DNA from: a phage
DNA: 64,000 nucleotides
NCBI GenBank assembly: GCA_023551395.1
Contig: GCA_023551395.1_3945.1
Direction: 5' to 3' (one strand)
Positions 4,782 to 63,950 of this stretch are shown piece by piece. Every line of letters begins with the position of its first letter. The first letter of the stretch is position 1. Below the pieces are notes generated by a model, which was given only the letters and a program-made list of their open reading frames with translations, was not told where the DNA came from and made no database searches. Both the position numbers and the translations under genes were made by a program.

Positions 4782-5680
4782 TACTTGCCTACTGACAGAG
4801 GTGCTTCAATCTTCCCTGCATGTTGGTAGTTGTTAATTCCACCAATAAAGTCACTTGCAGTAAGATGTTTTAAGTCACTTAAAGTGTTAAGCTGTACACC
4901 AATCTCAAAAGTAGGTGCATGGAACTCTTCATTGTTCATCAGTTCATAAACCTGCTTCATATGGTTCTGATAAATCTGAGTATCTCCAAAGACACCTATC
5001 AAGTACCGTGGAGTGTATCCAGTCATCTTGCAAAGAACTTCCAGAATAAAACCATAAGACGCAATATTAAATGGAAGTCCTAAAAAGGTGTCTACAGAAC
5101 GTTGATACCATTGTAAGTCAACTTCACCTTCATTAGTGATATAAATCTGAAACAGAACATGACAAGGTGCTAAAGCCATTGAGTTTGCTGCAATATCTGC
5201 TGCATTCCAAGCATTAACAAGCATGTAACGGTCTGTGATATCACCCTTCATCTTCGTTACTAAGGCCTCTAACTGGTCTACAACACAACCATTATGACCT
5301 TCGAAGTTTCTCCACTGAACCCCGTAGATTCTCCCACCTGCATCTTCTAACCAGTCTTGCTCAGAAGAATAGTTAGAGCTTAACCAACGTTTAAAATCAT
5401 CTGACCAGATGGTCCAACGTTCTCCATCATTTTCACCCCAAGTGCGATAACGGAGTTCACCAAGTTTATTCTCACCATTCAGGAACCATAAAGCTTCCCC
5501 AATAACTTGCCGTGTAAACACCTGTTTAGATGTTAAGAGTGGGAAACCAGTACGCATATCAAAACGAAACTGTGGTGGAGCAAATGCAGAGATAACATCT
5601 CCAGTTCGTGTAGTACGCAGTTCACCAACGGATAAAACATGGTTCAGGATATTTTTGTAACTTGAATCTGCTTGTGACAT
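4781..5680 (-). CDS. thyA: thymidylate synthase
   Basis: 299 aa; active-site Cys motif ALAPCH; ThyA-like overall features. Confidence 0.85.
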   Translation of the reverse strand: MSQADSSYKNILNHVLSVGELRTTRTGDVISAFAPPQFRFDMRTGFPLLTSKQVFTRQVIGEALWFLNGENKLGELRYRTWGENDGERWTIWSDDFKRWLSSNYSSEQDWLEDAGGRIYGVQWRNFEGHNGCVVDQLEALVTKMKGDITDRYMLVNAWNAADIAANSMALAPCHVLFQIYITNEGEVDLQWYQRSVDTFLGLPFNIASYGFILEVLCKMTGYTPRYLIGVFGDTQIYQNHMKQVYELMNNEEFHAPTFEIGVQLNTLSDLKHLTASDFIGGINNYQHAGKIEAPLSVGK

Positions 5681-57921: not shown

Positions 57922-58312
57922 AAAAACCTCTCTCTGCTTGTTCGATTTTTGCTCTTAAAGTTTCGCAATGATGTAGGTGGTAGTTAGCTTCTTGTTCATG
58001 TGTTGCTAACTGCCTTTCCAGAACAGTTTTATAGTAACCTGCAAGTTGCTCTTTTGTCAATGGGTGCTCTGAAATAATATCAAGTCCACTTTCGCCAAGA
58101 GGGTTGAATTGTCCATACTCATTGACATTGTAAGTCTCAAACTTGAATAGACCATTGTTCACAGACTCAATAGGTGACAGTTCAACAAGCTCTACAGTAA
58201 ACCGTGTATACACCTTGTCACCTCTTGAAACTACATTGTTTCCAACAATGCGTACAAGCGAGCCATTACGAGTGTACTTAAAAGTCCCAAAGTCACTAGC
58301 CCAAAGTTTCAT
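57914..58312 (-). CDS. hypothetical protein
   Basis: 132 aa ORF. Confidence 0.45.
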   Translation of the reverse strand: MKLWASDFGTFKYTRNGSLVRIVGNNVVSRGDKVYTRFTVELVELSPIESVNNGLFKFETYNVNEYGQFNPLGESGLDIISEHPLTKEQLAGYYKTVLERQLATHEQEANYHLHHCETLRAKIEQAERGFYE

Positions 58313-58330
58313 AGTTTTCTCCTTAGAAAA

Positions 58331-58352
58331 TAAAAAAGGCTCCCGAAGGAGC
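58331..58352 (-). terminator. Rho-independent terminator (minus strand)
   Basis: Reverse complement reads GGCTCC-TTCG-GGAGCC followed by TTTTTT, downstream of the lysozyme gene. Confidence 0.55.
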
Positions 58353-58363
58353 CTATGAAGATA

Positions 58364-58828
58364 TTACTTTGGGTATACACTGTCAAGATAAATGTCAGCT
58401 TCCATTCTACGTCTGTTTTTCAGGCCGTTTGAAGTGACCTTCTGACCTTTGACTGTAACCTTGTTCCACCACTGCATAGCTTCTGCACAACCTACCTTAT
58501 TACCAGCGTTGTGGCGCTTGATAAATGTAGAGTCCTGCATAGCTGTGATACCAATGTTGTATGTTTCACTTACAAGTGCATCAAACTCGTTCTGAGAAGT
58601 TGGAACCTTGATGGCTTTGTTCACTGCTGCAACGAATTTCTCAACATCTGCAAGAAGATACTGTTCAGCTTGTTCAGCAGTAATCTTCATACCCATCTTA
58701 ACAGGCTTCCCACCAATACGAATTGTCCCATACCCAATTGTGGGGATTCCAGCAGAATCTTCGTAAGCCTCAAGCTTAAGACCTTCAAAGAACTTAATAG
58801 CTTCTAAACCTTTTCTTGAGAGTTGCAT
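58364..58828 (-). CDS. T4-type lysozyme (endolysin)
   Basis: N-terminal FEGLKLEAYEDSAGIPTIGYG matches the T4 lysozyme catalytic region (Glu, Asp, TIGxG). Confidence 0.8.
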   Translation of the reverse strand: MQLSRKGLEAIKFFEGLKLEAYEDSAGIPTIGYGTIRIGGKPVKMGMKITAEQAEQYLLADVEKFVAAVNKAIKVPTSQNEFDALVSETYNIGITAMQDSTFIKRHNAGNKVGCAEAMQWWNKVTVKGQKVTSNGLKNRRRMEADIYLDSVYPK

Positions 58829-59961
58829 TATGCCTCCCCTGCTGGGTTAACTGTAACTGTTGCTGCATTAGATGTTACAGAGCCACCTGCACCAGTAACT
58901 ACACAAGTGTAGCTTCCTGCATCAGCAGTGGTTGCACCTTCTTTGGTGTAAGTTGCAGCAGTTGCATCGAGGATGTCTTCCTCACCTTTCTTCCACTGGT
59001 AACCTGTTGCACCTGTTGCCACAACATTCAGTGTTAAAGTCTCACCTTCAGTGATTTCTTGATTGGTTGGCTGTTGAGTGATTACCGGAAGTGCGTTAAC
59101 AATAATCGTTGCAGGGCTAGAAGTGACAGAACCACCTGCACCTGTTACAACGCAAGCGTATGAACCTGCATCTGCTGGCAGAGCACCAGACTTGCTATAG
59201 GTAGCATTTGTCGCTGAAGGAATGTCAGAGCCATCTTTCTTCCATTGGTAACCGGTTGCACCAGTTGCAGTAACTGCTAAGTTGATGTTTCCACCTTCAT
59301 TAATAGTCTGGTTAGAAGGTTGCTTGGTAATCACAGGTAGTGCGTTCACAGTCACTGTTGCTGCATCTGAGGTAACACTTGTTCCACCCTCTCCAGATAC
59401 AACACAAGTGTATGAACCAGCGTCAGAAGGTGCTACTGACTGTTTTGTGTAAGTTGCAGAATTGGCACTAGGGATATCCTCACCATCCTTCTTCCACTGA
59501 TATCCAGTGGCGTTAGTTGCTAGAATGCTTAGAGTAAGTGTGCCACCCTCATTGACTGTTTGACCTGTTGGTTGCTGAGTAATTGCTGGTGGCTTAATAG
59601 CATCCTTCAACTTAGCATTCAACATTGAGAACGGCTTAACTCTTGCCAACCATTCACAATACACTGTGTCAATGTCTTTACCATTGATGATTGCATACTG
59701 TAAATCCATGAAGAAATCAGCAGTCCTCATCTGTGCACCAACACTGTAAAGGAGTTCATCACTAAAAGGAACTTTGTAGTCTGGTTTGTAGTCAAACTTC
59801 GCAACCTCTGCAATATCAGCTTCAGGCCAATATGAGCTATAGGTTAGCGGTAAAATAGCTTCTTGATATGTTCTAAAATCATATCTCTTACCAGCCTTTA
59901 CATTTGCAACGAAACCTTTTACAAATTCTTTGAAGTCTGGGTAAGTCTTTGCTTTAATCAT
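58828..59961 (-). CDS. protein with three tandem Ig-like repeats
   Basis: Three ~95 aa repeats each with TGYQWKK(D/G)xxDIxxAxxATY(T/S)K...ADAGSY(T/A)CVV(T/S)G; N-terminal domain is paralogous to 59958..60329. Confidence 0.6.
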   Translation of the reverse strand: MIKAKTYPDFKEFVKGFVANVKAGKRYDFRTYQEAILPLTYSSYWPEADIAEVAKFDYKPDYKVPFSDELLYSVGAQMRTADFFMDLQYAIINGKDIDTVYCEWLARVKPFSMLNAKLKDAIKPPAITQQPTGQTVNEGGTLTLSILATNATGYQWKKDGEDIPSANSATYTKQSVAPSDAGSYTCVVSGEGGTSVTSDAATVTVNALPVITKQPSNQTINEGGNINLAVTATGATGYQWKKDGSDIPSATNATYSKSGALPADAGSYACVVTGAGGSVTSSPATIIVNALPVITQQPTNQEITEGETLTLNVVATGATGYQWKKGEEDILDATAATYTKEGATTADAGSYTCVVTGAGGSVTSNAATVTVNPAGEA

Positions 59962-60329
59962 TTCTTTTTAGCCTCTAAACGTGCGTTTAATCTAAAATAG
60001 CCTTTATGTTGTGGAGACACATCACTAACAACAATACCTTCAACTTTATAGCCCTTACCAATTACATACTGGATATCCATAAGAAACGTACCAAGCCCAA
60101 CAATGTGGAACATTGGGTATAGTAACTTATCTGAATCTGGGAGTTTAATTTCTGGTTTATAGGTAGGTTGTTCGGCAGTTGGTGTAATATCTTCTTCAGG
60201 CCATTTGCTAAGTCTCCATGTTAAAGGTGATGCAATAACATCGTTAAGATTATATCTCTCACCTTTCTCCACGGAATTAATATAGGATTGTAGGAAGCAA
60301 TAAAAGTCTTTTGCACTCTTAGCCTTCAT
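59958..60329 (-). CDS. hypothetical protein, paralog of the N-terminal domain of the Ig-repeat protein
   Basis: Shared motifs (KxxxDFxxFxxxxxxxVxxGxRYxxxxxxxxxLxxxxSxWPExDI ... LLY ... FxMDxQYxIxxG). Confidence 0.5.
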   Translation of the reverse strand: MKAKSAKDFYCFLQSYINSVEKGERYNLNDVIASPLTWRLSKWPEEDITPTAEQPTYKPEIKLPDSDKLLYPMFHIVGLGTFLMDIQYVIGKGYKVEGIVVSDVSPQHKGYFRLNARLEAKKK

Positions 60330-60376
60330 TAAATATCCTTATAAATAGATAAAGGGGCATTAGCCCCTGTTTATAC

Positions 60377-60967
60377 TTAAGCTTTGGTCTTAAGTAGGTT
60401 CTTAAGTTTTTTGAGATTCATGCTCTCGTCAAACTTAAAACCAAATCCATTGACATAATCAATGAACTCGGATTTCTTACTAAGTGATAGTGCGTAACTC
60501 ATATCAAAGTTATTACTTGTTTCTGCGTCTGGACTAGAGTTCACATCAAATGAAATTTCTGTAGGCTCTTGTTTACTTTTTCTCATATTATCAACCAACA
60601 AACATGTATAGTTTGCTGGATAGAAGTTTACACTACCATCAACGTAGCTGTACTTATTATTATGGATAAGGTTTGAAAATACCTTAAGAAATGTTTCTGA
60701 GTCGTGACAAACAAGTTTGAATTGGCTGCTCTCTCCAAGCGCAACTAATGAGTACGGACTTTCACTATCAAAGTCATAATTTGGATTCGATGCCGTCACT
60801 GTTACACGCATCAAGTTATTAGCAATAGTCTTCTGTTTAAAAGAATTTTGAACATAGTGAAGACCTCTATCACACTGATTGACTAGCTCTTTAAGTAGGT
60901 CATTTGCATATGGTGAATTAATTGATACAGAGCCATCACTATTGTAATTAAAACTTACTGTTAACAT
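60377..60967 (-). CDS. hypothetical protein
   Basis: 196 aa ORF. Confidence 0.45.
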   Translation of the reverse strand: MLTVSFNYNSDGSVSINSPYANDLLKELVNQCDRGLHYVQNSFKQKTIANNLMRVTVTASNPNYDFDSESPYSLVALGESSQFKLVCHDSETFLKVFSNLIHNNKYSYVDGSVNFYPANYTCLLVDNMRKSKQEPTEISFDVNSSPDAETSNNFDMSYALSLSKKSEFIDYVNGFGFKFDESMNLKKLKNLLKTKA

Positions 60968-61194
60968 TTTTCAGTTCTCCTGCGATTTATAATTTTGCTG
61001 CAATAGAGAAACGAAGTAAACTCACTGGAAGAAACCATTAAGTGTTGTTCACTAGATTGAGCCATTGCCCTGAAATACATTCCAGTCAAAGCATCATAGT
61101 GACTATTCTTTCCAATTGAGGTTATATAGCCATGACTCTTTGCAGTTTGATATAAATCTATAATATCTGCGATTTCTAATTGGGAACTACACAT
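60961..61194 (-). CDS. hypothetical small protein
   Basis: 77 aa ORF. Confidence 0.4.
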   Translation of the reverse strand: MCSSQLEIADIIDLYQTAKSHGYITSIGKNSHYDALTGMYFRAMAQSSEQHLMVSSSEFTSFLYCSKIINRRRTEKC

Positions 61195-61586: not shown

Positions 61587-61958
61587 ATGAAAAACAGAAC
61601 AAACAAAGGCCAGTTTAAAAAAGGCCAATCTGGAAACCCATCTGGAAGACCAAAAGGCTCTCGCAACAAAAGCTCACTTGTAAAAGCTCAACTGACCATT
61701 GATAATTCTGCTGAGTTTGCTGCAAAGTTGTTTGAGGCGATTGTTACAAGGGACGCTGCTAAGCTTGCAGAGTTCGGGTTAAACACAGATGATGTAACCA
61801 TCAAGAGTATGATTGAGGTCGGTAAAACTATCTTTACTCACTCAGCAGGTGAGATGAAAGCACTTGCAGCAGACACTAAGAAGACTCCTGATAATGGTGG
61901 TCAACCACAGACAGATAACAAACCAACGTTCTCTGCTGTAGCGACTCTTAAAAAATAA
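61587..61958 (+). CDS. hypothetical protein with Gly/Pro/basic N-terminal motif
   Basis: N-terminal KGQFKKGQSGNPSGRPKGSRNK. Confidence 0.45.
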   Translation: MKNRTNKGQFKKGQSGNPSGRPKGSRNKSSLVKAQLTIDNSAEFAAKLFEAIVTRDAAKLAEFGLNTDDVTIKSMIEVGKTIFTHSAGEMKALAADTKKTPDNGGQPQTDNKPTFSAVATLKK

Positions 61959-62039: not shown

Positions 62040-63455
62040 ATGAGCGAATTATTTAAACATGCGCACCTTCATGCAGGTCGAACTGAAAATGGTGCTGTAA
62101 ACCATACTTCATCAATGTCTGCTCTTGTAGACTTTTACAAAGCTGCTGGTTCTAGCCGTAGCAATGTAGAAATCTTACCAGACTTGTTCTACAAAGCTTT
62201 GCATGAGGATGTTGATGTTGCAGTTCGTATTTTACTGCATATGCGAGATGTACGAGAAGGTATGGGTGAGCGTAAAGCTTTCCGAACTGTTTTACTTCAA
62301 GCGATTGAAGATAAAGTTTTAGAGCCTACGCAGGTTCTTCGCATTATGGATAAGATTGCAGAGCTTGGTCGCTTTGATGACTTCAAAATCTTTGTAGGTA
62401 CTCGTTTCGAGACAGATGCCTTCAAACATTTAGAAGCAGCTTTACTAGACCCTGCAACAGCAGGTTTGGCGGCTAAGTGGTTACCACGAGTCAAACCACG
62501 TCATAAGCAGTTTGTAAAACGTTTCTGCAAGTTTGCAAACTTGAGTGAGAAAGAGTACCGCACACTGCTGTCTGCACTATCTGATACAGTTGAACAAAAA
62601 ATCTCTGCTAATGAGTTTGGTAATATTGACTACAGTAAGATTCCTTCACTTGCTGCTGCACGTTACCAAAAACTGTTTAACCGTAAAGATGGAGAGCGTT
62701 ACAAAGCTTACATCGAGTCCTTATCAAAAGGTGAGACTAAGATTAATGCTGGTGCTGTTTATCCATACGATGTGATTAAATCTCTCAAGTATGGTAATGC
62801 AGATGTTGCTAATGAGCAGTGGAAAGCACTACCAAACTGGATGGCAGAAGGTGAAAACATCCTATGTATGACTGATGTTTCAAGCTCAATGTCTTGGGTG
62901 AATTTTGGTTCAATCACTGCACTTGATATTGGTGTATCACTTGCCTTGTATGTAGCAGAACGCAATACAGGTTGCTTTAAGGATGAGTTGATGGTTTATT
63001 CAACAAACCCTCACTTCATCGAACTGAGTGGTGATTTACGAAACCGTCATCGTCAGGTGATGCGACACGTTGAATATGGCTCAACTAACTTACAAGCAGC
63101 TTTTGACCGCATTCTTGAGACAGGTAAAAGAAATAACTTGACTCAGAAAGATATGCCAAGTAAGCTTATCATCTTCTCCGATATGGAGTTCAATCAGGTT
63201 GATGGAGCTAACGGTCGTACAAACTTTGAAGCAATTCAGAGTAAGTACAAAAAAGCTGGATATGAGATGCCACAACTGGTATTCTGGTACTTAGCAAACC
63301 GTAATGGCACTTGCGAAGTATCTGTTAAGGATAACGGTGTAGCAATGGTATCTGGTTTCTCTCCAGCCACTTTAAAAGCTCTGCTTGGTGGTGAGAAGTT
63401 TGACCCAATTAGTGTAATGCTCAAAGCAGTAATGATTGACCGTTATATCTGGTAA
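62040..63455 (+). CDS. von Willebrand factor A (vWA) domain protein with helical N-terminal domain
   Basis: MIDAS-type DxSxS motif in ILCMTDVSSSMSW, later LIIFSDMEF; N-terminal ~250 aa helical. Confidence 0.5.
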   Translation: MSELFKHAHLHAGRTENGAVNHTSSMSALVDFYKAAGSSRSNVEILPDLFYKALHEDVDVAVRILLHMRDVREGMGERKAFRTVLLQAIEDKVLEPTQVLRIMDKIAELGRFDDFKIFVGTRFETDAFKHLEAALLDPATAGLAAKWLPRVKPRHKQFVKRFCKFANLSEKEYRTLLSALSDTVEQKISANEFGNIDYSKIPSLAAARYQKLFNRKDGERYKAYIESLSKGETKINAGAVYPYDVIKSLKYGNADVANEQWKALPNWMAEGENILCMTDVSSSMSWVNFGSITALDIGVSLALYVAERNTGCFKDELMVYSTNPHFIELSGDLRNRHRQVMRHVEYGSTNLQAAFDRILETGKRNNLTQKDMPSKLIIFSDMEFNQVDGANGRTNFEAIQSKYKKAGYEMPQLVFWYLANRNGTCEVSVKDNGVAMVSGFSPATLKALLGGEKFDPISVMLKAVMIDRYIW

Positions 63456-63620: not shown

Positions 63621-63697
63621 CTCTGTTTAGCTCAGCTTGGTAGAGCGTTCCGTTTGGGGCGGTAAGGCCGGAGGTTCAAGTCCTCCAACAGAGACCA
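63621..63697 (+). tRNA. tRNA-Pro (anticodon UGG)
   Basis: Hand-folded cloverleaf: 7 bp acceptor CTCTGTT/AACAGAG, D-arm GCTCAGCTTGGTAGAGC, anticodon loop TTTGGGG, T-arm GGAGGTTCAAGTCCTCC, encoded CCA. One U-U mismatch in anticodon stem. Confidence 0.65.
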
Positions 63698-63704
63698 AAT
63701 TAAT

Positions 63705-63782
63705 GTTCCAGTAGACAAAACGGTAAAGTCACCACTCTTTCAAAGTGGATATTTGAGGGTTCAAATCCCTTCTGGAACGCCA
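63705..63782 (+). tRNA. tRNA-Glu (anticodon UUC)
   Basis: Acceptor GTTCCAG/CTGGAAC, perfect anticodon stem CCACT/AGTGG with loop CTTTCAA, T-loop TTCAAAT, encoded CCA. Confidence 0.6.
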
Positions 63783-63873
63783 GTTTTGACAGAAGACCAA
63801 TTACAGCAAACTTAATCTTATTCATCTGAAGGTAAATCGGACAAAGAAGAGATTTGGTCTGGTCATTAAGAAT

Positions 63874-63950
63874 TGCGGGTATAGAGAAAGGGCGTCTCAC
63901 ATGTCTCATTAGCATGGTATCGGCAGGTTCGACTCCTGCACCCGCCTCCA
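63874..63950 (+). tRNA. tRNA with CAU anticodon (Met or Ile2)
   Basis: T-arm GCAGGTTCGACTCCTGC, anticodon stem CATGT/GCATG with loop CTCATTA, encoded CCA; unpaired 1-72 position and one extra nt before the D-stem. Confidence 0.45.

Follow-up and report, generated by a model that had tools for sequence, protein, structure and literature searches.

The window, which is the whole 64,000-nucleotide stretch of phage DNA that was analysed, originates from a Felix O1-like myophage of the genus Felixounavirus. Homology analysis identified a long ORF on its minus strand (58828..59961) as Hex-Dec, the Hoc-like capsid decoration protein that Felix O1-type phages (Ounavirinae) carry at hexamer centres. 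The predicted protein consisted of 377 aa with a molecular weight of 39.6 kDa and a pI of 4.7. The adjacent minus-strand ORF (59958..60329; 123 aa, pI 8.9) is a paralog made up of the capsid-binding domain (CapBD) alone. Both ORFs had been reported in the preliminary description and could be recovered at these positions. Taken together, the account developed here, with a gene cassette, capsid decoration by Hex-Dec, reshuffling of its Ig units and a paralog kept by selection, was considered very probable. The capsid role, the variable number of Ig units and the location outside the structural module have already been published, and every main point save the paralog appeared in print in 2025. 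The recognition of the 123-aa neighbour as a CapBD standing alone, which was read from its sequence, is new in this analysis, as is the chimeric structure of the short alleles with at least four junctions.

Homology of Hex-Dec and its capsid-binding domain

Hex-Dec showed a full-length match to PDB 9NCF chain S, the Hex-Dec of Bas63 (E = 7.5e-292), and further matches to PDB 9C2D chain S, which is Sf14 gp20 (E = 1.8e-168), and to phrog_3995 (9.6e-207); NCBIfam contained no family for either Hex-Dec or the paralog. The CapBD (residues 1–122; 59596..59961, minus strand) aligned one-to-one to 9ncf_S and 9c2d_S, with no large gaps; the resolved chains of these two consist of 122 and 120 residues, respectively. 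In Sf14 gp20, two arginines (R79 and R107) make salt bridges with Asp221 of the major capsid protein (MCP) (PMC11821841). Both anchors were present in the window Hex-Dec and were invariant in 12 orthologs. The MCP gene is not located within the window, and the Asp221 partner is the one described for Sf14. From 1.84 billion representative proteins, the CapBD profile retrieved no more than 12 clusters, and all of these bear the same CapBD. AlphaFold2 models of the Hex-Dec CapBD had pLDDT values of 36–59, which is too weak for a comparison of binding surfaces, and the authors of the Sf14 study also reported that AlphaFold did not reproduce this domain (PMC11821841).

Cryo-EM analyses from 2025 placed the Bas63 and Sf14 orthologs at capsid hexamer centres, where, in the T=9 head, each of the 60 edge hexamers has one monomer at its centre (PMC12609058, PMC11821841). 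The choice between capsid and tail, which the preliminary description had left undecided, falls on the capsid based on this ortholog evidence. Most Hex-Dec relatives are labelled 'tail protein' or 'putative tail protein' in GenBank, and the Ig region of Hex-Dec matches major tail protein PHROGs, e.g. phrog_158 and phrog_853; however, those matches are limited to the Ig region (residues ~96–295), a domain common among phage surface proteins, while the N-terminal domain of the two orthologs was seen in capsid hexamer centres (PMC12609058, PMC11821841) and the Bas63 paper explicitly calls the tail annotation wrong (PMC12609058). The cryo-EM placement refutes a tail protein for the orthologs, and for the window ORF such an assignment is hardly credible. 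Felix O1 ORF36 could be confirmed as a Hex-Dec ortholog, and its product gp36 was detected in virions by mass spectrometry with 44% coverage (PMC3185647).

Given its orthology to the proteins solved in the Bas63 and Sf14 capsids, Hex-Dec would have a two-lobed domain formed by its first ~120 residues. In the T=9 head, this domain would plug, as a monomer, into the centres of the 60 hexamers next to the pentamers (facet-edge hexamers), held partly through salt bridges from Arg79 and Arg107 to a ring of MCP Asp221 residues. The three acidic I-set Ig domains would extend outward as a flexible fibre. Judging from T4 Hoc, the likeliest function of this fibre would be either to adhere weakly to mucus, glycans or cell surfaces or to control the aggregation of particles. 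Hex-Dec is dispensable in the laboratory. In a CRISPRi-ART screen SUSP1 agp125 and agp126 were both scored 'Not Fit', a result of limited sensitivity since the lysozyme was likewise scored 'Not Fit'.

Organization of the gene cassette

The Hex-Dec gene sits outside the structural module, flanked by the CapBD-only paralog and the endolysin gene. The position next to a lysozyme and away from structural genes, as first described, was thereby borne out; the endolysin (T4-type lysozyme; 58364..58828, minus strand; Pfam Phage_lysozyme, 9.2e-41) is encoded directly downstream. Reading of the sequence revealed that the paralog stop and the Hex-Dec start overlap as ATGA, and that the Hex-Dec stop and the endolysin start overlap as TAATG. 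Owing to the latter overlap, the endolysin was counted as the third gene of the cassette. The ATGA overlap was kept in 27 of 29 loci, and the order paralog, Hex-Dec, endolysin was common to 28 related loci, Sf14 and one distant metagenomic relative.

A terminator-like GC hairpin (60353..60368, minus strand) occurs just upstream of the cassette and is followed by an AAGGA ribosome-binding site (60336..60340, minus strand), and a second terminator-like hairpin with a T-run (58337..58354, minus strand) occurs just downstream of the endolysin. The stem of the upstream hairpin was conserved in relatives with differing loop and stem letters, and the wV8 annotation places terminators at both hairpin sites. 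No sigma-70 promoter was found before the cassette between the upstream hairpin and the ribosome-binding site, and an Rfam search of the entire window returned tRNAs only. Overall, the three genes form a minus-strand cassette that has terminator-like hairpins at both ends and in which the genes are joined by their stop/start overlaps.

Ig units, copy number and recombination

The three Ig-like domains that had been noticed in the long ORF could be confirmed using Pfam, AlphaFold2 and Foldseek. Pfam analysis of Hex-Dec revealed Ig_3 (8.8e-32), Ig_2 (6.5e-27) and I-set (3.3e-24), with three stretches each. The fold prediction that had been suggested as a check yielded three all-beta Ig domains with pLDDT values of 94–97, for which the best Foldseek matches were tandem Ig arrays such as those of LRIG1, Robo and titin I67-I69 (E ~1e-20). 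Unit types A, B, C and D were defined on the four-unit reference allele L016, and the window units were assigned by painting against this allele. Ig unit 1 (residues 123–206; 59344..59595, minus strand), which was delimited by Pfam Ig_3 and had a pLDDT of 94–95, was of type A. Ig unit 2 (residues 207–289; 59095..59343, minus strand) and Ig unit 3 (residues 290–372; 58846..59094, minus strand), supported by Pfam and AlphaFold2 as well, were of types B and D, respectively. A five-residue tail and the stop codon follow Ig unit 3 (58828..58845, minus strand).

The repeat unit measured 83–84 aa, corresponding to a DNA period of 249–252 nt, rather than the ~95 aa initially estimated. Nor were the repeats near-identical as first thought, since the identity between the window Ig units was 64–70% in protein and 61–67% in DNA. 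The longest exact DNA word common to the unit copies was 9–13 nt, and Tandem Repeats Finder reported nothing for 58000..61000 because the repeats are too diverged.

Comparison of repeat number among relatives, which had been proposed earlier, revealed 1, 2, 3 or 4 Ig units per allele in 28 complete related loci. The expected copy-number variation was thus found, but near-identical DNA repeats fail as its cause given that the units are only 61–67% identical in DNA. The window allele represents A-B-D out of the A-B-C-D set. Type D is the terminal unit of the four-unit alleles, and Ig unit 3 had a nearly identical counterpart in Bas63 Hex-Dec, namely its fourth unit. The shorter alleles proved to be chimeras joined in register, and at least four distinct junctions could be distinguished; unit 2 of Felix O1 is a B/D chimera, and three one-unit alleles are A/D chimeras whose junctions differ. 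On each side of the junctions, 24/26 to 52/53 informative sites agreed with the chimeric assignment. In-register recombination between the diverged units falls at short conserved motif patches, and the length of the Ig array changes through recombination of this kind.

The CapBD-only paralog

The N-terminal ~120 aa of the long ORF had been described as paralogous to the adjacent small ORF, and BLASTP analysis supported this with 35% identity over 121 aa between the paralog and Hex-Dec residues 1–120 (E = 3e-18). Each of the two proteins matched the PHROG family of the other, the paralog itself matching phrog_4463 at 8.2e-78, and phmmer aligned it with 9ncf_S (E = 7.3e-14, residues 2–119). The AlphaFold2 model of the paralog had a mean pLDDT of 56, too weak for a binding-surface comparison, and the top two Foldseek matches of this low-confidence model were 9c2d_S and 9ncf_S. 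The paralog, which equals Felix O1 ORF37, Sf14 gp21 and SUSP1 agp126, has homology over the full capsid-binding domain and carries no display domain. Its anchors were not kept, with an invariant Gly at the Arg79 position and Gln, His or Arg at the Arg107 position, and Lys109 was retained. With these positions changed, the paralog may lack capsid binding altogether; the loss of Arg79 is not decisive, however, because distant display-bearing CapBD members (e.g. P0105) are also devoid of Arg79. An ORF upstream of a distant CapBD-Big_2 protein (locus L035) was considered separately and was not a paralog.

The length of the paralog was constant (122–124 aa), and its median dN/dS was 0.12 versus 0.044 for the Hex-Dec CapBD, so that its protein evolves approximately three times faster. 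These values indicate that the paralog is under purifying selection. It was retained by Felixounavirus, Mooglevirus and SUSP-type phages as well as by a metagenomic lineage at greater distance, and was lost via one shared internal deletion in about 20 of 253 phage records (~8%), the natural deletion strains including SP116, the REP phages and Tf. Bas63 was not among the records matched by the L016 unit C query, and the paralog gene was confirmed in Sf14 instead. In Felix O1, RT-PCR revealed maximal expression at 60 min for ORF36 as well as for ORF37, and ORF37 is absent from the virion proteome list, which required at least 25% coverage (PMC3185647). ORF40c is likewise absent from the VpaE1 virion proteome list. 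Such absence in mass spectrometry is weak evidence for a 14-kDa protein with possibly 20 copies or fewer. Sf14 encodes gp21, yet its capsid map was published with no reported extra density (PMC11821841). The paralog is apparently not a stable virion component. It may best be regarded as an old CapBD duplicate lacking the display domain and maintained by selection, and our best guess, purely by inference, would be an action within the infected cell on the same partner as that of Hex-Dec, the capsid protein or its hexamers. The paralog could serve there as a transient placeholder or compete with Hex-Dec and so modulate its loading.

It is possible, but somewhat unlikely, that the paralog is now unrelated to the capsid, having acquired a different intracellular role after duplication or being a decaying relic. 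Its absence from virions and maps, the replaced anchor residues, the dN/dS of 0.12 against 0.044 and the dispensability of the gene would fit such a fate. However, a relic is unlikely given the constant length, the low dN/dS and the retention across the Felixounavirus, Mooglevirus, SUSP-type and metagenomic lineages, and the ATGA coupling to Hex-Dec in 27 of 29 loci suggests a linked function of the two proteins.

A more specific proposal, which we regard as doubtful, is that the paralog truly binds hexamers of the capsid or procapsid as a 'blank' devoid of display domains. It would then either cap the 20 face-centre hexamers, at an occupancy that is low or labile, or compete with Hex-Dec and thereby set the number of Ig fibres per virion. 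Still less probable is an overlooked capsid decoration protein, a bare plug sitting on those hexamers that Hex-Dec leaves free, namely the 20 at the face centres (true three-fold positions). The paralog matches the resolved CapBD in length and is homologous to it throughout, it is expressed late together with Hex-Dec in Felix O1, its pI of 8.9 fits an Asp-lined hexamer pore, and its changed anchors could mirror the different Asp221 geometry reported at three-fold hexamers (PMC11821841). Nevertheless, both cryo-EM studies, one of which included a 4.5 Å asymmetric map, found no density on the face-centre hexamers (PMC12609058, PMC11821841), the paralog is missing from the Felix O1 and VpaE1 virion proteomes, and its loss in ~8% of relatives has no obvious cost. 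Icosahedral averaging would smear the signal of a plug of this kind, and low copy number and small size would let mass spectrometry miss it.

A programmed −1 frameshift fusing the paralog and Hex-Dec into one protein with two capsid-binding domains is suggested by the 3' end of the window paralog (...GCT AAA AAG AAA TGA) and by the −1 frame of Hex-Dec, which is open across the junction, but it was rejected as next to impossible because the A-rich run is not conserved (GCTGAAAAG in wV8; AATAAA or AAGAAA in Moogle-/SUSP-type phages) where the ATGA overlap is, and because the reported mass of the protein in Felix O1 virions, 31.6 kDa, corresponds to ORF36 alone (PMC3185647).

Comparison with known capsid decoration proteins

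The closest counterpart of the window protein was Hex-Dec of Bas63 (Escherichia phage JohannRWettstein; 9NCF chain S), which is the same gene in the same genus and corresponds one-to-one over residues 1–372. The two share the CapBD, the unit types and the genome position outside the structural module (PMC12609058). Bas63 Hex-Dec consists of 460 aa with four Ig units, whereas the window protein has three, the third Bas63 unit being missing and the terminal one kept. Sf14 gp20 (9C2D and 9C3A, chain S; PMC11821841) is an ortholog from a Shigella phage of the sister genus Mooglevirus. It has three Ig units and both R79 and R107 like the window protein, and its cassette of gp21, gp20 and the gp19 endolysin equals that of the window, but it is 372 aa long and its Ig units are more diverged.

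T4 Hoc, the functional model for adhesion and aggregation, resembles Hex-Dec as a laboratory-dispensable monomer at hexamer centres with a string of acidic Ig-like domains. However, its capsid-binding domain is C-terminal, whereas in the window protein the CapBD comprises residues 1–122 and the Ig domains residues 123–372, and the two capsid-binding domains have no relationship in either sequence or topology (PMC12609058). Moreover, Hoc occupies every hexamer of its prolate T=13 head, whereas Hex-Dec orthologs occupy the 60 edge hexamers in a T=9 head. The 'Hoc-like' PHROG matches of Hex-Dec (phrog_2973, phrog_4069 and phrog_3945) were confined to residues ~120–370, and neither the PHROG search nor the CapBD profile search found homology to the Hoc family outside the Ig domains. 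T5 pb10 (PDB 5LXK, 8ZVI) has one Ig domain, which matches Hex-Dec at E ~3e-12. The capsid-binding domain of pb10 had no sequence match to the Hex-Dec CapBD. We know of no stand-alone paralog of pb10.

Biological significance

The Hex-Dec gene is an ordinary one in that it encodes an already-described Hoc-like head fibre, and Hex-Dec itself needs no follow-up as a discovery. The analysis replaces a frequent mis-annotation, 'tail protein', with that of a capsid decoration protein whose structure is known. The chimeric alleles represent a natural reshuffling of Ig-fibre length by in-register exchange of units that are only ~65% identical, which is relevant to the engineering of display phages and to the interpretation of Ig-number variation in gut phages. 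If the paralog does act as a 'blank', the phage would encode its own regulator of capsid decoration, born by duplication of the anchor domain. The stand-alone anchor domain is a candidate player in capsid decoration, for which the deletion strains offer a ready-made natural experiment.

Source genome and gene cassette

The 3.7-kb stretch around the locus matched 252 phage records in the phage collection search, nearly all of them Felix O1-like myophages of Escherichia, Salmonella, Shigella, and Citrobacter, with Escherichia phage Andreotti as the top match (94.8%). This places the window within the genome of a Felixounavirus, in the subfamily Ounavirinae.

Three minus-strand genes form the cassette: a short ORF (59958..60329), a long ORF (58828..59961), and the lysozyme (58364..58828). 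The stop of the short ORF and the start of the long ORF overlap as ATGA, which was conserved in 27 of 29 loci, the stop of the long ORF overlaps the lysozyme start as TAATG, and a GGGGAGG ribosome-binding site for the lysozyme lies within the last codons of the long ORF. Terminator-like hairpins were found directly upstream of the short ORF (60353..60368, a GC hairpin) and directly downstream of the lysozyme (58337..58354), and wV8 annotates a terminator at both places. The upstream hairpin scored as a terminator on both strands, and its stem was kept in about 30 relatives despite changed loop and stem letters. Only ~12 nt separate it from the ribosome-binding site of the short ORF, with no room for a sigma-70 promoter in between. 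In Felix O1, RT-PCR showed ORF36 and ORF37 peaking at 60 min together with the tail-fibre genes, and the flanking ORF35 and ORF38 at 25 min (PMC3185647). The same gene order was found in Shigella phage Sf14 (gp21, gp20, gp19), in SUSP1, and in L031, a metagenomic phage of 87 kb that is more distantly related.

On the plus strand, a DUF5681 protein (61587..61958; Pfam 2.3e-14), the neighbours of which were scored 'Not Fit', and a 471-aa DUF2828 + DUF7788 protein annotated 'RNA-binding protein' (62040..63455; phrog_850) were present. Directly after the latter, the tRNA array of the phage begins (Pro, Glu, Met; 63621..63950); ARAGORN calls its third tRNA, which falls short of the gathering score in Rfam. 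Even in L033, a distant metagenomic locus, the pair of DUF2828 and DUF5681 genes lies near those for the capsid-binding domain and lysozyme.

The long ORF, very likely the capsid decoration protein Hex-Dec

The long ORF (377 aa) was confirmed, and it matched over its full length chain S of 9NCF ('Immunoglobulin-like domain protein', 460 aa; E=7.5e-292) and chain S of 9C2D/9C3A ('Tail protein', 372 aa; E=1.8e-168) among the PDB sequences. These entries are the cryo-EM capsids of Escherichia phage Bas63 (9NCF; PMC12609058) and Sf14 (9C2D; PMC11821841). The protein, gp20 in Sf14 and Hex-Dec in Bas63, has been described as a Hoc-like decoration protein with a two-lobed, pseudo-C2 capsid-binding domain (CapBD) in its N-terminal ~118-120 residues, which occupies, as a monomer, the centre of those hexamers of the T=9 head that adjoin the pentamers along the facet edges, while the face-centre hexamers lack the protein and its flexible Ig domains are not resolved in the maps (PMC11821841, PMC12609058). 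In Sf14, Arg79 and Arg107 of gp20 form salt bridges to Asp221 in three of the six capsid subunits (PMC11821841); both residues were kept in the window protein and were invariant in an alignment of 12 orthologs. ORF36 was confirmed as the Felix O1 ortholog, and its product was detected in purified virions by mass spectrometry with 44% coverage (PMC3185647). Judging by orthology, the long ORF very likely encodes Hex-Dec and would bind the capsid as described for its orthologs. The common GenBank label 'tail protein' was rejected as a historical error, a mis-annotation on which the Bas63 paper is explicit (PMC12609058). Over 10 kb separate the Hex-Dec gene from the structural module (PMC12609058), a position already remarked in 2010 for Felix O1 gene 36 (PMC3185647).

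The three Ig-like repeats named in the preliminary description could be confirmed, and they span residues 123-206, 207-289, and 290-372. Pfam Ig_3 (8.8e-32), Ig_2 (6.5e-27), and I-set (3.3e-24) each matched three stretches, AlphaFold2 with an alignment of 12 orthologs predicted three all-beta domains (pLDDT 94-97), and Foldseek comparison of the predicted Ig-like beta-sandwiches against the PDB returned tandem Ig arrays, among them LRIG1, Robo1/2, and titin I67-I69 (E about 1e-20). The fold prediction thus did not refute the proposed Ig-like sandwich. The Ig part was acidic (computed pI 4.3), in agreement with the negative surface likened to T4 Hoc by the Bas63 authors (PMC12609058). By analogy with T4 Hoc, the Ig fibre may plausibly serve in adhesion or aggregation.

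Recombination in the Ig array

The repeats had been described as near-identical and ~95 aa long; however, their period was 249-252 nt (83-84 aa), their identity was 64-70% at the protein and 61-67% at the DNA level, the longest exact DNA word common to the units was 9-13 nt, and Tandem Repeats Finder reported no repeat at the locus. The copy-number variation expected from them does occur, but near-identical DNA repeats fail as its cause. Among 28 complete related loci, one Ig unit was present in four (210/211 aa), two in 12 (294/298 aa), three in 10 (377 aa), and four in two (461 aa). Ig domain number is known to vary from one to four among Felixounaviruses (PMC12609058), and Sf14 relatives carry two or three (PMC11821841).

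Alleles were painted against the four-unit allele of the related locus L016 (units A-B-C-D). The window allele was A-B-D, that of L010 was A-D, and that of Felix O1 was A followed by a B/D chimera (unit 2; informative DNA sites 24/25 for the left and 52/53 for the right parent). The one-unit alleles of three further loci were A/D chimeras with three different junctions, located in the conserved GYQWKK, ATYTK, and SYTCVV patches; left and right parents were matched at 24/26 and 45/48 sites in L008, 28/38 and 36/39 in L030 (Salmonella phage SP116), and 51/58 and 18/19 in L011. The Ig array has therefore changed length through recurrent in-register recombination among units that have diverged from one another. 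In the alignment, the third unit of Bas63 Hex-Dec differed from unit C of L016, so that the extra units in circulation are of at least two kinds.

The CapBD-only paralog

The short ORF (123 aa) was also confirmed, and its proposed paralogy to the N-terminal ~120 aa of the long ORF held (35% identity, E=3e-18, reciprocal PHROG hits). It has the size of the resolved CapBD and matched 9ncf_S over residues 2-119 (E=7.3e-14), and the two best PDB matches of its low-confidence model (pLDDT 56) by Foldseek were 9c2d_S and 9ncf_S. In a record named 'Staphylococcus phage SA1', which was among the Felixounavirus matches and is probably mixed or mislabelled, the paralog protein was 99% identical. The whole locus occurred twice in MG969406 (GE_vB_B3, 109 kb), which suggests a concatenated assembly. 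Neither cryo-EM paper mentions the paralog (no hits for 'paralog'), and 'gp21' appears in them only in the Sf14 supplement, there about phage SPP1 (PMC11821841, PMC12609058).

The paralog was 122-124 aa long in every lineage, with a median pairwise dN/dS of 0.12, compared with 0.044 (Hex-Dec CapBD) and 0.07 (lysozyme). The gene is functional rather than a relic, and it is dispensable. At the paralog search, 20 of 253 phage records were left with the Hex-Dec cross-match alone. An internal ~240-nt deletion removes most of the gene, and SP116 (L030 3306..3497), REP7, Tf, and fKMPT1 had the same 192-nt remnant; the loci with this allele were L030, L036, L037, and L038. This deletion, common to about 20 of the 253 sequenced relatives of differing hosts and countries, points to the spread of one deletion allele through Salmonella, E. 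coli, and Shigella isolates, and its carriers have a one- or two-unit Hex-Dec. In SUSP1 CRISPRi-ART, agp125 (Hex-Dec ortholog) and agp126 (paralog) were both 'Not Fit', as was the lysozyme, indicating limited sensitivity of the screen (PMC11879866 supplement).

Forty-one family-specific conserved positions separate the paralog from Hex-Dec. Among these, it carries an invariant Gly at the Arg79 position and Gln, His, or Arg at the Arg107 position, and it is basic (pI 8.9) versus the neutral Hex-Dec domain (pI 6.3). Arg79 is also missing from some of the distant members that bear display parts, and its loss in the paralog is therefore no proof of lost capsid binding. The Felix O1 virion proteome does not include the paralog (PMC3185647), and in VpaE1 its ORF40c was not among the 22 virion proteins and stays 'hypothetical'. 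As a tentative guess, ranked first, the paralog might act inside the cell on the same partner as Hex-Dec, as a placeholder, competitor, or helper. An unrelated new role is somewhat less probable. That it plugs the face-centre hexamers at low occupancy and has been overlooked there is improbable; Sf14 does encode the gene, and no density was reported on unoccupied hexamers in the Bas63 and Sf14 maps (PMC12609058, PMC11821841). A frameshift fusion with Hex-Dec is highly improbable, as the dnaX-like slippery run at the paralog end (59962..59972; GCT AAA AAG AAA TGA), from which a -1 shift leads into the Hex-Dec frame, is not conserved in wV8, Moogle- or SUSP-type phages and is most likely coincidental.

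A search of 1.84 billion representative proteins with a CapBD profile yielded just 12 clusters. In the distant proteins, the CapBD was joined to a Big_2-type domain (P0101, P0102, P0105), to a single Ig domain (P0103), or to a disordered tail rich in Lys and Ser (P0104); the anchor is a reusable module. In L033 (SRR33913825_5192; P0104 lineage), a single CapBD gene (5001..5462), with a Lys/Ser/Glu-rich disordered tail in place of Ig domains, also adjoins the lysozyme, and this position is therefore old. The duplication seems to be confined to the clade of Felixounavirus, Mooglevirus, and SUSP-type phages and to its near relatives.

The capsid location, the position outside the structural module, and the variable Ig number are already published, and the finding is real but ordinary, being explained in the literature. 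Its remaining novelty lies in the CapBD-only paralog, which was not described before, and in the map of recombination across the Ig units.
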